Positions 50,801 through 56,800 of a stretch of DNA of 64,000 nucleotides are shown piece by piece; position 1 is the stretch's first letter; each line of letters begins with the position of its first letter. A program made the position numbers. The stretch is from Escherichia coli (lineage in GTDB: Bacteria; Pseudomonadota; Gammaproteobacteria; Enterobacterales; Enterobacteriaceae). Location of the stretch: the NCBI RefSeq assembly GCF_030013595.1, contig NZ_CP122768.1. The stretch is one strand, 5' to 3'.

Positions 50801-53800
50801 GCAACCAGAGCAGTTTGTGGAAATCGGTGAGTCGCTGGCGAATAAACTTGGCATTGCCCAGGGCGATACCGTGAAAGTCTCCTCCAACCGTGGCTATATC
50901 AAAGCCAAAGCGGTGGTGACCAAACGTATTCGCACGCTGAAAGCGAACGGCAAAGATATCGATACCATCGGTATTCCGATTCACTGGGGCTATGAAGGTG
51001 TTGCGAAAAAAGGCTTTATTGCCAATACGTTAACGCCATTCGTTGGTGATGCGAACACGCAGACGCCGGAGTTTAAGTCCTTCCTTGTGAATGTGGAAAA
51101 GGTGTAACGGAGACGACATATGGCTTATCAATCTCAAGATATCATTCGTCGTTCCGCGACTAACGGTCTGACCCCCGCGCCTCAGGCGCGGGACTTCCAG
51201 GAAGAAGTGGCGAAACTCATCGACGTCACCACCTGTATCGGCTGTAAAGCCTGTCAGGTGGCGTGTTCAGAGTGGAACGACATTCGCGATACCGTCGGCA
51301 ATAACATTGGGGTGTACGACAACCCCAATGATTTAAGTGCCAAATCGTGGACGGTGATGCGCTTCTCGGAAGTGGAACAGAACGACAAACTGGAATGGCT
51401 GATCCGCAAAGACGGCTGTATGCACTGTTCCGATCCAGGCTGCCTGAAAGCGTGCCCGGCGGAAGGAGCAATTATTCAGTATGCCAACGGTATCGTCGAC
51501 TTCCAGTCCGAGCAGTGCATCGGCTGCGGTTATTGCATTGCGGGCTGTCCGTTCGACATTCCGCGCCTCAACCCGGAAGACAACCGCGTCTACAAATGTA
51601 CGCTGTGCGTTGACCGCGTGGTGGTTGGGCAAGAACCGGCCTGCGTGAAGACCTGCCCAACGGGCGCGATTCACTTCGGTACGAAAGAGTCGATGAAAAC
51701 GCTGGCGAGCGAGCGCGTGGCGGAGCTGAAAACTCGCGGTTACGACAATGCGGGTCTGTACGATCCGGCAGGCGTTGGCGGTACACACGTTATGTACGTG
51801 CTGCACCATGCTGACAAGCCAAATCTGTATCATGGCTTGCCGGAGAACCCGGAAATCAGCGAAACCGTGAAATTCTGGAAAGGCATCTGGAAACCGCTCG
51901 CAGCTGTTGGCTTTGCGGCTACCTTCGCGGCCAGTATCTTCCACTACGTGGGTGTCGGTCCGAACCGTGCGGATGAGGAAGAGAATAATCTGCACGAAGA
52001 GAAAGACGAGGAGCGCAAATGAAACGACGTGACACCATCGTGCGCTACACCGCGCCGGAACGTATCAACCACTGGATCACCGCCTTCTGCTTCATCCTGG
52101 CGGCGGTGAGCGGGCTTGGCTTTTTGTTCCCGTCCTTCAACTGGTTGATGCAAATCATGGGCACACCGCAGCTGGCGCGAATTCTGCACCCGTTTGTCGG
52201 CGTGGTTATGTTTGCCTCGTTCATCATCATGTTTTTCCGTTACTGGCATCACAACCTAATCAATCGGGATGATATCTTTTGGGCGAAGAATATTCGTAAG
52301 ATCGTCGTCAACGAGGAAGTAGGTGACACCGGGCGTTATAACTTCGGTCAGAAATGCGTTTTCTGGGCGGCGATTATTTTCCTGGTTCTGCTGCTGGTGA
52401 GCGGCGTGATTATCTGGCGTCCTTATTTTGCGCCTGCTTTCTCAATCCCGGTGATCCGATTCGCGTTAATGCTGCATTCATTTGCCGCAGTGGCGTTAAT
52501 TGTGGTTATCATGGTGCATATCTACGCCGCCCTTTGGGTGAAAGGCACGATTACCGCCATGGTGGAAGGATGGGTTACCAGCGCCTGGGCGAAGAAACAT
52601 CACCCGCGCTGGTACCGTGAGGTCCGCAAGACAACGGAAAAGAAAGCTGAATGAGTATTCGCATAATCCCGCAAGATGAGCTGGGTTCGAGCGAGAAACG
52701 TACGGCGGATATGATTCCGCCGTTATTGTTCCCTCGGCTCAAGAATTTATACAACCGCCGCGCCGAGCGTCTGCGCGAGCTGGCAGAAAATAATCCGCTG
52801 GGTGATTACCTGCGCTTTGCTGCGCTTATCGCCCACGCCCAGGAAGTGGTGCTGTACGACCATCCGCTGGAGATGGATCTGACTGCACGCATTAAAGAAG
52901 CCAGCGCACAGGGCAAGCCCCCGCTGGATATTCACGTTCTGCCGCGTGATAAGCACTGGCAAAAGCTGCTGATGGCGCTGATTGCTGAGCTGAAACCTGA
53001 AATGAGCGGCCCGGCGCTGGCAGTGATTGAGAATCTGGAGAAGGCATCGACCCAGGAGCTGGAAGATATGGCCAGCGCACTGTTTGCCTCTGATTTCTCG
53101 TCCGTCAGCAGTGATAAAGCGCCGTTTATCTGGGCTGCGCTGTCGCTCTACTGGGCGCAGATGGCTAATCTGATCCCCGGCAAAGCCCGCGCTGAATACG
53201 GCGAACAACGTCAATATTGCCCGGTATGTGGCTCTATGCCGGTGTCCAGCATGGTGCAAATTGGCACCACTCAGGGGCTGCGTTACCTGCACTGCAACCT
53301 GTGTGAAACCGAATGGCACGTGGTGCGCGTAAAATGCAGCAACTGCGAGCAGAGCGGCAAACTGCATTACTGGTCGCTGGATGACGAACAGGCCGCGATT
53401 AAAGCCGAAAGCTGCGATGACTGCGGCACTTACCTGAAGATTCTTTATCAGGAAAAAGAACCGAAAGTTGAAGCCGTGGCAGATGACCTCGCCTCTCTGG
53501 TACTGGACGCGCGAATGGAGCAAGAAGGCTACGCCCGCAGTTCCATCAACCCGTTCCTGTTCCCGGGTGAAGGGGAGTAATCTCTGACGTTTTCCGGGTG
53601 GCGCAGGTCGCCCGGATTATAGCTCATAGGGTGTGACGACACTATCTCTCGTATTCCGCGTTACAACCTCAAGCTATGCCGCCAGTGCCTGTTTTGCCTC
53701 AATTTTCACACTGAGAAAATCGATAAGGATATCGATATCAAATAGCCAAATCTTTTTGCCATTACCATTCCTCGCGCAGCTTACGCTGGTATTCGACACC

Positions 53801-56800
53801 ATCTTCCTCACTCCCTTGCCAGATGCCAAAAGCACTGGCTCTTGCTGTTTGCGATTGATTTACCAGGTATTGATCTACCGCTTCCCGTAATAGCTTCGCA
53901 CGAGGAAGATTACGCTGCACCTCGAGATCATCAAGTTGCTTAAACAACTCATTCGATAAATTGAGTAAAATTCTGCCCATATCTATACCTGCCAGAGAGT
54001 TCATAAATATCTCGCCATTATCATTTTTGAATCTATGGAGAGAAAAGTACCCTTGCCGAATCTTTAAAGAAAGCTCATTTACGCATCATTTTTTATTTTT
54101 GCGAGGCGTTTTCCAGATATGATGTAACAGTTGCAGTTATTATAAGTTCAAGTAAAACAACCTTGTATTAATATCAGAATAAGGGCATCTGGTTTTTATA
54201 TTCAAGAATAATAAATTTTTTGTCATTCCTTATGCTCCTTACACTGATCATCGACACCCACTGCCTCCCCCTTTTGCCTGCCTCCCTTTGCTTTACGCAC
54301 CGGGAATTGCTGACGTTCCAGATATTGCTCTACCGCTTCGCGTAAAATTGCAGATCGTGAAACCTTACGCCAGCCCCTAAGCTTGTTCAGCCGTTTAATT
54401 GCCTCTTCTGATAAATGAAGAAAAACCGTATTCATCGCCATTACCAATACCTTACATATATTACTCATTAATGTATGTGCGAAAATTACGCCGAAAAATC
54501 ATTTAAAAAAAGCGGATTTTTGCATGCTGTTTTGTTTTTGCGAGACGTTTTCCAGAAATAATAAGAACGTTGCAGTTGTTTCATTTGTTAATCAAAAATG
54601 GTTTGGTTATCGCCCAGGATGAGATATGGGTGCTATAAATATATTATATTCAGGGATATTTATTTTTTGATTGGGTCTTCATTTGCATAATCTGAATGGT
54701 GTACCCGAAAAACGTCAGCATCCTAACAGCACCAGGATTTAAGGTGAAATTTAACATCCATCACAGACCGTTCAATGCTGCCACCAACCGGTCTTTACTT
54801 GCTCGTCGTTATAATTTTGTGGGTAACAGTTCGGGAAACAAGGAATTCCTTCCGGAACACCCCGGTATCATCCGATAGCATTGACGTCAATCATCAGCGC
54901 GACGGTGAGTTTTTTTAATCGCATCATAGGATGGTAACGTTAAGCACGATTACGGGTCATAGTAAAACTCCTGAGCAGGCGGCACTATGCCGCTTTCACA
55001 GGAGTTCTGAATGCTGGTGCTTTCTGTATGGCTTCGCTATGCCCCTCGCGGCTAAGCGCCTGCACACATCTCTCTTTGAATGTCATTTTTGCAATGCATT
55101 GTCCGAATTCTGATAATCCTAATGAGTTTTACCCGTCAGACTCCCATCCCTACGGTATACGAGCTAGATTCATGAATGAAATCGACATTTTTAAAAAACG
55201 AATCTTGTAAAACATCCGTGTTGATATTACCTTGCAACCCAACATTAAATTTGTTAGAGAGATGAAGAACTCGAATATCAAAAAGGTCTTTTAACATCAT
55301 TAATTCTTTGGCTGTTAATGAATCGCAACTAAAATATCCCTGTTGATCAAAAAGCTTTTCTATTTCTCTACCATCGGCGAGGCGTTTTTCAAGGAGTGTT
55401 TGCAACATCGAGTTGCCAAGGACAATGGATATCGTGCGATCTTTCGCAGATTTACACCCCATCACAACGGCAACATTCGTATCCCCCTCAGGAGTTTCAT
55501 TTATCGCCGTCGCTAAAATGGTGGTCAAACACGCAAACGGAACTGTATTTCTTTCGTGATTTAATTTATCTACCAGTTCATTCCATTTATCAAAAGCCGG
55601 GCTATATTTGTTGCGTACAGAAATATCCGACTGGTTAAACAATTCAGCCATGCGATTTTTTATCATCTCGATATCCGGCGAACCAGAAAGACTTTGCGCA
55701 TAATACGGTCCTGATGATGTTGCATACATTAAAGCCGAGCCCACACCTGTCGCCATGATGGGCGCAGCTACGGTTTTGGCAAGGGCGACGCTGCGATGGC
55801 TATGCGCTTCACAGGCTAAAGGAACATATTCCACTGACTGCGGTAATTCCTTACATGCCTCCCTCATCATTGCGGTATGCTTTACAAACAACGGTTTTTC
55901 ACTGCCCAAAAAAACCTTCTGCTTAATTGCACTAAGAAAACGTAAATCCAAAATGATTGTTTTTGGTTTATTATTTTTTGGCACATTTCCTATTATCCCG
56001 CTAAGAACCTTCCTTGCTGCATGGAGATTTTTTTGCACAGCACATAACACAATTGACGAAGCCTTCTCTACTGCGTTATTGATTTTAATTTTAAAATCTG
56101 CATGATATACGTTGACGGGCAATGCAAGTATATCTTCCCCTACATCTTTGGCTGAGTATTTATTTGTGATCGACGGTCGTGAATCCACGAGAAAACTTAG
56201 CTGCAAATTATGCTCTATATTACCAGCTGTTTTTGTAGTGTGATTAAACATAGAGATGCCACCTCTCATTCTTTCACACATATCCTCAACTTTATCACTT
56301 CGTTCTTGTGGCAATTTGGCTTTAACGTTAATTTGATGATTTTTACCCGTGCATTCCTTAACAACAAGAGGAATGTTATCTAAAGTGCCATACAGGCTAA
56401 TAACGTCACCAGGATTTTTATCATGTAAGTAAGTTTGATTAATACTCGAAGCATTCACAAAGAGGTCAATATTATAACTGTTTATAACTTCACCTACATC
56501 AAATGTGTAGTGCTTACTCTGGAGGCTGCCATCCTTGTTTAATTGTATATCAATCAAGATATCCCCGGACTTTGTCACCATATCTTTGCCATAAACCATT
56601 TGCATAGCCATTTCGAGGAGGTTTTTATCTAACTGATTGCGGGCGTTGAGTAAGCGACTACCAAATAATTTATATACTGTTCCCGTCATTGCCAGCGCTG
56701 CGCTTTCTGGTACTTTGCGTTTCCACAGTGAGGTTTCTTTATTTTTAAACAGGTCATATTTATTATTACTCGACAACCCGAGTTTAAGTTCGTTAACACA

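Follow-up and report, generated by a model that had tools for sequence, protein, structure and literature searches.

FitAB of Neisseria gonorrhoeae and other modules that pair a ribbon-helix-helix (RHH) antitoxin with a PIN toxin repress their own promoter via an inverted repeat. The closest described relative of the locus considered here is VapBC of Klebsiella pneumoniae, whose PDB entries 7BY2 and 7BY3 combine a 'CopG family transcriptional regulator', encoded by the Klebsiella ortholog of yiiF, with a 'Ribonuclease VapC'. YiiF itself was still classed as a transcription factor of unknown function in a 2022 survey (PMC9308461). We have examined a stretch of 64,000 nucleotides from Escherichia coli (contig NZ_CP122768.1, hereafter the window) in which fdoGHI-fdhE on the + strand is followed by yiiF, yiiE, a 604-aa open reading frame (ORF) and fabY/yiiD on the - strand; the region tested is 100% identical to E. 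coli strain HCP5S3_I2. The initial annotation had singled out yiiF and yiiE as tandem RHH genes, each preceded by a similar element that was taken for a duplicated autoregulatory operator-promoter. We find that the vapBC module sited between fabY and fdhE across the Enterobacteriaceae has yiiF as its antitoxin gene, vapB, and we consider it likely that the locus represents a chromosomal vapBC in decay, its antitoxin gene having been tandemly duplicated together with its control region, and that the shared upstream motif is an older, separate cis element.

YiiF is a direct ortholog of the Klebsiella antitoxin, encoded at the same fabY-fdhE locus and possessing the same RHH N-terminus and W/Y-rich tail, but the window differs from Klebsiella in having a toxin pseudogene, a degraded proximal palindrome and a second, tail-less paralog, yiiE, upstream. 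The locus shares with FitAB and other RHH-PIN modules an RHH antitoxin, a PIN toxin, genes that overlap and a short inverted repeat across the promoter; the element flagged here, however, is not this repeat but an extra, asymmetric 21-bp site ~100 bp upstream that is common to unrelated modules. As in orphan antitoxins and degenerate chromosomal toxin-antitoxin loci, the toxin has been lost by deletion and frameshift while the antitoxin has been kept and its constraint appears relaxed. What sets the locus apart from these is that the antitoxin and its control region would have been duplicated before the toxin was lost, and that yiiE is under clear purifying selection and recombines with yiiF into chimeric antitoxins.

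YiiF is a VapB antitoxin next to a decayed vapC gene

To determine the distribution of the locus, one genome per species was scanned for yiiF-like genes. A single such gene is located between fabY and fdhE in Citrobacter, Salmonella enterica diarizonae, Klebsiella, Kluyvera, Trabulsiella, Kosakonia, Lelliottia and Franconibacter, whereas Cedecea and one metagenome-assembled genome have yiiF-like genes elsewhere in the genome. At ~25 of the surveyed loci or species the yiiF ortholog is overlapped by an intact ORF of 124-126 aa, encoding a PIN domain (Pfam PIN, 5.4e-18). The YiiF-type protein matches chain A of PDB entry 7BY2 with E = 1e-36, and chain B of the same entry, 'Ribonuclease VapC', is the product of the Klebsiella gene neighbouring the yiiF ortholog; the antitoxin is thus orthologous to a VapB that is paired with a VapC. 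An intact, overlapping PIN gene downstream is missing from the window and present in 57 E. coli genomes as well as the ~25 other species.

What remains of the toxin gene in the window was delineated by tblastn, which matched the remnant to VapC residues 9-31, and by base-level alignment to strain 2016C-3878. According to the alignment, both ends of vapC are retained, but the reading frame is shifted by 1 nt near the start, ~225 nt of the interior and a separate stretch of 15 nt have been deleted, and a stop codon occurs prematurely. The gene is intact in 57 of 5426 complete E. coli genomes, and 2016C-3878, which has the layout of the window (604-aa gene, yiiE, vapB, vapC, fdhE), encodes an intact VapC of 124 aa; in K-12-type strains, repetitive extragenic palindromic (REP) elements have additionally been inserted into the vapC remnant. 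The earlier view that no cognate toxin is adjacent to the RHH genes is therefore correct in that there is no intact toxin gene, but the cognate vapC is present as a pseudogene directly downstream of yiiF (Table 1).

YiiE and YiiF share 39% identity across 71 residues (E = 8e-12). An RHH domain is evident in YiiE from its profile (Pfam RHH_1, PF01402, 1.6e-11); the Pfam match of YiiF is weak (RHH_3, PF12651, 2.3e-3), and we accept YiiF as an RHH protein because of a near-identical structure solved by nuclear magnetic resonance (PDB 2K5J) and of the Klebsiella ortholog in 7BY2. Their description as tandem RHH paralogs related to antitoxins is borne out by this identity, the Pfam matches, 2K5J and the orthology to 7BY2. 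Both had been given as 72-aa proteins, which holds for yiiE, whereas yiiF is 80 aa in RefSeq and reaches 72 aa only from an internal ATG; the end coordinate previously assigned to the pair, 54468, belongs to an 81-aa ORF with an upstream ATG and not to yiiE, which ends at 54441. Sequence comparison of the C-terminal tails indicates that YiiF keeps the W/Y-rich stretch seen in 7BY2 and that YiiE is devoid of the aromatic residues conserved in VapB.

In other genera, an alpha/beta hydrolase gene diverges from vapB (L017 1012-2778 and equivalents), with a canonical LexA box (CTGT-N8-ACAG) over its promoter. Since this hydrolase is often followed in turn by a higBA pair, the gap between fabY and fdhE appears to be a hotspot for toxin-antitoxin modules. 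E. coli-type yiiE-yiiF genes (85-99% protein identity) were also encountered on short contigs labelled Bacillus coahuilensis (L004) and Robinsoniella (L005), which are probably assembly contamination.

Evidence for duplication of the antitoxin gene with its control region

The similarity between the two genes extends far beyond their coding sequences, and the whole repeat unit of ~440-460 bp forms a tandem repeat. Identity differs between segments, being 43% in the far-upstream part, 77% in a conserved 79-nt block, 95% in the core of that block, 45% in the promoter-proximal part and 57% in the coding sequence, so that a non-coding block is better conserved than the genes themselves. The local alignment of the far-upstream parts was outdone by just 1 of 1000 shuffles, and this segment has no significant similarity to the LexA-box region or to the 5' end of vapC. 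The whole-unit alignment, together with the identities of block and core, upholds the proposal that the upstream similarity reflects duplication of a regulatory region.

Homologs of the YiiE type were found in Escherichia and Shigella only. The ratio of non-synonymous to synonymous substitution rates (dN/dS) for yiiE is 0.09-0.33, and residues 1-52 are invariant across the five alleles compared, E. whittamii among them; yiiE is thus clearly under purifying selection as a DNA-binding protein. For the yiiF allele of the window, dN/dS against other orphan alleles is 1.4-1.6, a value that is only suggestive because it derives from just 13-18 differences; taken with the degraded palindrome and -10 element described below, it suggests that constraint on this allele may be relaxed. 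Natural chimeras with the N-terminus of YiiE and the C-terminus of YiiF/VapB are also present (proteins P0089, P0100, P0102 and P0023), as would be produced if tandem paralogs crossed over unequally. One of these chimeras (L097 2501-3093) overlaps an intact PIN gene, which suggests that the DNA-binding domain of YiiE can head a working module.

A plausible order of events can be proposed from these comparisons. The ancestral layout would have been fabY, an alpha/beta hydrolase with a LexA box in some cases, the 21-bp motif, vapB (RHH) overlapping vapC (PIN), and fdhE, the arrangement now seen in Citrobacter, S. enterica diarizonae, Klebsiella, Kluyvera, Trabulsiella, Lelliottia, Franconibacter and a minority of E. 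coli. A unit of ~450 bp comprising far-upstream DNA, motif, promoter and vapB may then have been duplicated in an ancestor of Escherichia, and the upstream copy would have become yiiE by quick divergence, keeping the RHH domain, losing the putative toxin-binding tail and gaining a palindrome of its own. Later destruction of vapC in most E. coli, including the window, would have left yiiF as an orphan antitoxin.

Two further features were observed at the repeat. In E. coli AVS0787 (L003 2295-3908) a DUF6708 gene and a hypothetical gene on the opposite strand are inserted between yiiF and yiiE, with the junction ~25 nt upstream of the yiiF motif. In the window, the whole array from yiiE to the vapC remnant is bracketed by a 16-nt inverted repeat matching at 15 of 16 positions (CTGACGTTTTCCGGGT at 53584-53599 and ACCCGAAAAACGTCAG at 54703-54718), one arm of which overlaps the fdhE terminator hairpin and the other of which is in the 3' flank of a cassette remnant; by a rough estimate, ~0.02 such pairs are expected by chance.

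Proximal palindromes are the candidate operators of YiiF and YiiE

In an alignment of 28 upstream regions, the best conserved -10-like hexamer was TATACT, preceded by TGn, within the block TGATATAC-TGGAG-GTATATATG. The 'yiiF' start site mapped in K. pneumoniae is located 4 nt before the ATG, just downstream of TGaTATACT, and is represented by 4 reads (Kim et al. 2012, PMC3415461 supplement); the mRNA would thus be nearly leaderless in Klebsiella. No E. coli start sites for yiiE or yiiF were found in the supplements of the transcriptome papers searched. At loci with an intact vapC (L038, L017) the proximal block contains a perfect inverted repeat, ATATAC-N5-GTATAT. A search for inverted repeats in the proximal block of yiiF in the window found none, and its -10 element has lost the T at position 6. 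The palindrome upstream of yiiE differs in sequence from that of intact loci, its arms matching at 9 of 10 positions (25 of 2000 shuffles were as good, p ~0.01), and is identical in all aligned yiiE loci. The second-best column in the sigma70 -10 scan, a TAnnTT hexamer found in 26 of the 28 sequences, is positioned 45 nt upstream of the TATACT block.

Dyad or tandem sub-sites overlapping a promoter, as expected of an RHH operator, are therefore present in the proximal blocks, as ATATAC-N5-GTATAT at intact loci and as the 9/10 arms at yiiE, and lacking in the more distal motif shared by the two genes. We propose that each RHH protein represses its own promoter via the proximal palindrome that overlaps the -10 element and start site. 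Autoregulation is placed here, and the distal motif assigned to another factor, because the motif is common to two paralogs whose DNA-reading strands and palindromes are not the same, and because it also occurs with non-RHH modules and at dinG-ybiA.

A conserved distal element precedes both genes

The element of ~40 bp noted previously upstream of each gene is real but larger than described, consisting of a 79-nt block that is 77% identical between the two genes without gaps and contains a 22-nt core. On the sense (-) strand the core reads TCTGGAAAACG[C/T]CTCGCAAAAA, with 21 of 22 positions matching, and this pattern occurs twice in the window against 0.01 occurrences expected by chance. It is conserved over ~10 genera, with a mean pairwise identity of 0.83 compared with 0.36 in the flanks, at a nearly fixed spacing from the start codon, and is centred ~98 nt upstream of the start site mapped in K. 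pneumoniae. From its sequence, the motif contains no dyad, internal repeat or tandem sub-sites.

Several kinds of function were considered for this element. The start codons and frame of a potential small ORF across the motif are not conserved in the alignment, nor are the variable positions third-codon positions, and a short RNA hairpin (GCG-GCU-CGC) lacks compensatory changes. There is no conserved -35/-10 pair on either strand that would indicate a sigma70 promoter. An Rfam search gave no match, and folding z-scores of -0.3 to +1.3 revealed no single-strand DNA structure or attC-like hairpin. None of the binding sites of PutA (GTTGCA), MetJ, PurR, LacI-family proteins, CpxR or SdiA, nor the DnaA box, the marbox or the Mu ends, in the forms that we take these sites to have, fits the positions conserved across genera. 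A literature search by motif sequence found no match. The duplicated element (TTCTGGAAAG-nnn-CTCGCAAA) is probably an older, separate cis element that was carried along by the duplication. A host factor distinct from the RHH proteins probably binds it, and would act either upstream of the promoter or near the start of the transcribed sequence.

The motif heads unrelated modules at other loci

The same motif precedes an unrelated module encoding a 103-aa toxin and NadS in S. enterica Infantis, Enterobacter hormaechei, E. coli AVS0787 and K. spallanzanii, and is retained at three loci (L053, L087, L090) where the toxin-antitoxin module has been lost. A metagenome scan identified an identical 21-mer, TTCTGGAAAGCGGCTCGCAAA, in three further non-coding enterobacterial contexts: ~50 nt beyond the SOS box of dinG, 62 nt upstream of a relBE-like operon in reverse orientation, and after the terminator of an fdh-like gene. 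Matches in coding regions of unrelated organisms are without the flanking TT. The relBE-like operon (relB/dinJ-like and relE-like genes) adjoins nrdDG on the metagenome contigs L075, L077 and L093 (motif at L075 6185-6205), and GCATTAC repeats are present between it and the 21-mer.

In K-12, the copy between dinG and ybiA (L095 1619-1639) is located 23 nt before the ybiA start codon, and falls within the ybiA leader as mapped by 2 reads (Kim et al. 2012). This start site places the ybiA promoter over the dinG SOS box (L095 1540-1600), so ybiA may be LexA-controlled too. The ybiA gene belongs to the NADAR family; a tblastn search of a plasmid collection returned, among enteric records, only E. 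coli, and nothing useful was found when the literature was searched for co-mention of ybiA with yiiE or yiiF. In 541 genomes, among them that of strain Z0117EC0005 (L096/L098), a type III effector island of 4 kb, encoding a 'type III effector' and a 561-aa hypothetical protein, replaces ybiA exactly to the motif edge; no second motif copy was found at the other end of this island.

Alternative explanations for the shared motif

The explanation offered originally, that the motif is an autoregulatory operator-promoter and that each RHH protein binds it upstream of both genes, draws on the motif being the best conserved non-coding segment between the two units, on its retention upstream of vapB in many genera at a nearly fixed distance from the start codon, and on the presence of an RHH-type antitoxin in the relBE-like module that also bears it. 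However, the motif has neither a dyad nor tandem sub-repeats and the mapped start site is ~98 nt downstream, and the motif is the same upstream of paralogs with different beta-strands (GRILLDLS and NTVFLHLS) and different proximal palindromes. Since it also heads the toxin/NadS module, in which NadS is a helix-turn-helix protein, at loci without an RHH gene, and is present at dinG-ybiA, the motif is probably not the binding site of the RHH proteins; we regard the operator-promoter proposal as quite unlikely, and it is not sustained by these data. A sigma54 promoter (-24/-12) of each RHH gene would account for the TGG and GC exactly 10 nt apart, for the pattern TGGAAAG-N4-CTCGCA in all orthologs with cross-genus variable positions confined to the spacer, and for an asymmetric element of ~20 bp with a gene downstream in most contexts. 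When scored with a sigma54 weight matrix built from 50 published sites determined by chromatin immunoprecipitation sequencing (ChIP-seq), however, the motif reached only 3.1-5.3 bits, a level equalled by 325 positions in the window, whereas the lowest score among known sites is 7.9 and their median is 16. The highest score in the window, 17.9 bits, was obtained for the positive control, CTGGCGCGAATTCTGCA in fdoI (52172-52188, + strand), which is the intragenic sigma54 site IS47 of Bonocora et al. 2015. ChIP-seq and genomic SELEX (systematic evolution of ligands by exponential enrichment) in K-12 list no site at yiiE, yiiF, ybiA or dinG, and this explanation, largely refuted by matrix score and published occupancy, is highly improbable. 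The presence of copies at a few other loci might also be expected of a generic dispersed repeat of the REP or bacterial interspersed mosaic element type without locus-specific meaning, but E. coli genomes contain the motif at a median of 2 and a maximum of 4 places rather than hundreds, each site has a single copy without flanking homology, palindrome or folding signal, and the genuine REP elements in the K-12 vapC remnant look quite different. With so few copies per genome the motif is not of the REP type, the check that had been proposed for this came out negative, and the chance that it is such a repeat is negligible.

A different possibility is that the motif is an attachment (att)-like docking or junction site, such that the array motif-cassette-motif-yiiE-motif-yiiF arose by serial site-specific insertion and not by tandem duplication. 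This would explain why a 1.45-kb toxin/NadS cassette in K. spallanzanii is flanked by identical 28-bp motif copies, why three unrelated module types are found directly beside the motif, and why independent breakpoints coincide with its edges, in Trabulsiella/Enterobacter (5-9 nt after the fabY stop), in the L090 deletion and in the dinG island of the 541 genomes. There is some resemblance to integron attC arrays, in which small modules with their own promoters are arranged in line, each headed by the same short sequence, but an integrase, a hairpin-forming site and a GTTRRRY core are all lacking here, and the site is asymmetric and 21 bp long. No recombinase gene is present at any locus examined, the motif is without dyad symmetry or single-strand structure, and the repeats that flank the K. 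spallanzanii cassette have no counterpart around the dinG island. Moreover, homology between the two E. coli units extends over ~450 bp and takes in the coding sequence as well as ~100 nt preceding the core, the chimeras show ordinary unequal crossing-over, and clustering of breakpoints is equally expected if the motif is merely under selection. Selection on the element is favoured over a role as insertion site because of the dinG island, the 450-bp homology and the chimeras, which makes serial insertion unlikely.

Tandem duplication of a vapBC antitoxin with its control region is thus the explanation that we prefer, yet several observations weigh against parts of it. The sole start site was mapped in another genus, K. 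pneumoniae, with 4 reads, and the GGAGG preceding the yiiF-type ATG lies upstream of it, which hints at an additional upstream promoter that was not located. VapB-type proteins may also bind the distal motif. For two genes duplicated within Escherichia, 39% protein identity is a low value when yiiF orthologs from different genera retain 55-75%, and yiiE would have had to diverge very fast. As the motif also heads unrelated modules, sharing it does not by itself prove duplication of a whole unit, and the dN/dS values depend on a small number of differences (13-18).

Neighbouring island and coordinates of the features

Upstream of yiiE, the window retains remnants of a four-gene cassette that is present at this position in other strains; of its genes, the last one and nadS are each represented only by the 3' end, and the gene for the 70-aa protein only by its start. 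The island carrying the 604-aa gene replaced the rest of the cassette, a third motif copy and the hydrolase. Some 973 E. coli genomes carry this island. In the K-12-type locus (L002 2966-3082), sequence corresponding to window positions 56886-56950 is joined to ~54838, so that what remains of the last cassette gene is fused to codons 1-22 of the 604-aa gene; the K-12 state is therefore derived from a window-type arrangement by deletion. The 604-aa protein has no match in Pfam, NCBIfam or PDB. Its stretch GCKSAKDRT has the form of the Cys-X5-Arg signature of cysteine phosphatases and appears to resemble the active site of SopB/IpgD. The idea that the RHH proteins might regulate this gene has no support in the sequence, the region upstream of it containing no motif-like or palindrome-like site and only half-site matches at chance level. 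A weak motif-like sequence (GGACAATGCATTGCAAAAAT on the sense strand, matching at ~15 of 20-23 positions) is located at 55085-55104, just inside the island end near the junction with the cassette remnant, and may be a chance match.

Table 1. Positions of genes, remnants and candidate regulatory elements in the window.
Feature	Position	Strand	Description	Remarks
vapC pseudogene (PIN toxin remnant)	53617-53762	-	146 nt left of 375	tblastn and alignment to 2016C-3878
yiiF	53762-54004	-	80 aa per RefSeq; 72 aa from internal ATG at 53977	Orphaned VapB antitoxin: RHH domain and putative toxin-binding tail
Degraded proximal promoter/operator of yiiF	54002-54023	-	Equivalent of canonical TGATATAC-TGGAG-GTATATATG	-10 reads TAATGG; no inverted repeat left
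Second conserved -10-like hexamer, TAnnTT	54043-54052	-	Candidate upstream promoter of yiiF	Twin at 54482-54492 for yiiE
79-nt conserved block upstream of yiiF	54063-54141	-	Core at 54096-54117, TCTGGAAAACGCCTCGCAAAAA	
Far-upstream part (X2) of yiiF repeat unit	54142-54222	-	Resembles 54634-54668 upstream of yiiE	Repeat family D5
yiiE	54223-54441	-	72 aa	Escherichia-specific RHH paralog of vapB, degenerate C-terminal tail
yiiE palindrome	54454-54478	-	ACATACATTA-ATGAG-TAATATATGT; overlaps TAATAT -10-like hexamer	Candidate YiiE operator
79-nt conserved block upstream of yiiE	54502-54580	-	Core at 54535-54556, TCTGGAAAACGTCTCGCAAAAA	
Remnants of four-gene cassette	54800-55069	-	103-aa toxin, NadS, 70-aa and 92-aa proteins	blastn against E. 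coli AVS0787 (L003)
604-aa island ORF	55136-56950	-	Intact here	Split by RefSeq into 'transposase' and partial 'hypothetical protein'

Implications

The analysis identifies two long-standing y-genes of E. coli, yiiF as an orphaned VapB and yiiE as a lineage-specific, selectively maintained paralog. As an example of toxin-antitoxin decay accompanied by antitoxin duplication, the locus is ordinary but instructive. Within one species, the intact module, a chimeric antitoxin, an orphan and a decaying orphan are all found, providing a natural series for the fate of an antitoxin after loss of its toxin.

The 21-bp element is short, strongly conserved and asymmetric, and is the only part of the locus that could lead somewhere new. 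A speculative and rather doubtful proposal is that TTCTGGAAAGCGGCTCGCAAA is a dedicated, undescribed protein-binding site of enterobacteria that marks where accessory modules are installed or controlled, either as a landing pad or as the operator of a regulator. If this were true, the 21-mer would link vapBC, the toxin/NadS module, the relBE-like operon, ybiA/NADAR and the type III effector island as the landing pad of a site-specific insertion system or, if it acts as an operator, would point to a regulator tying several toxin-antitoxin modules to neighbours under SOS control, such as dinG and the hydrolase with a LexA box.

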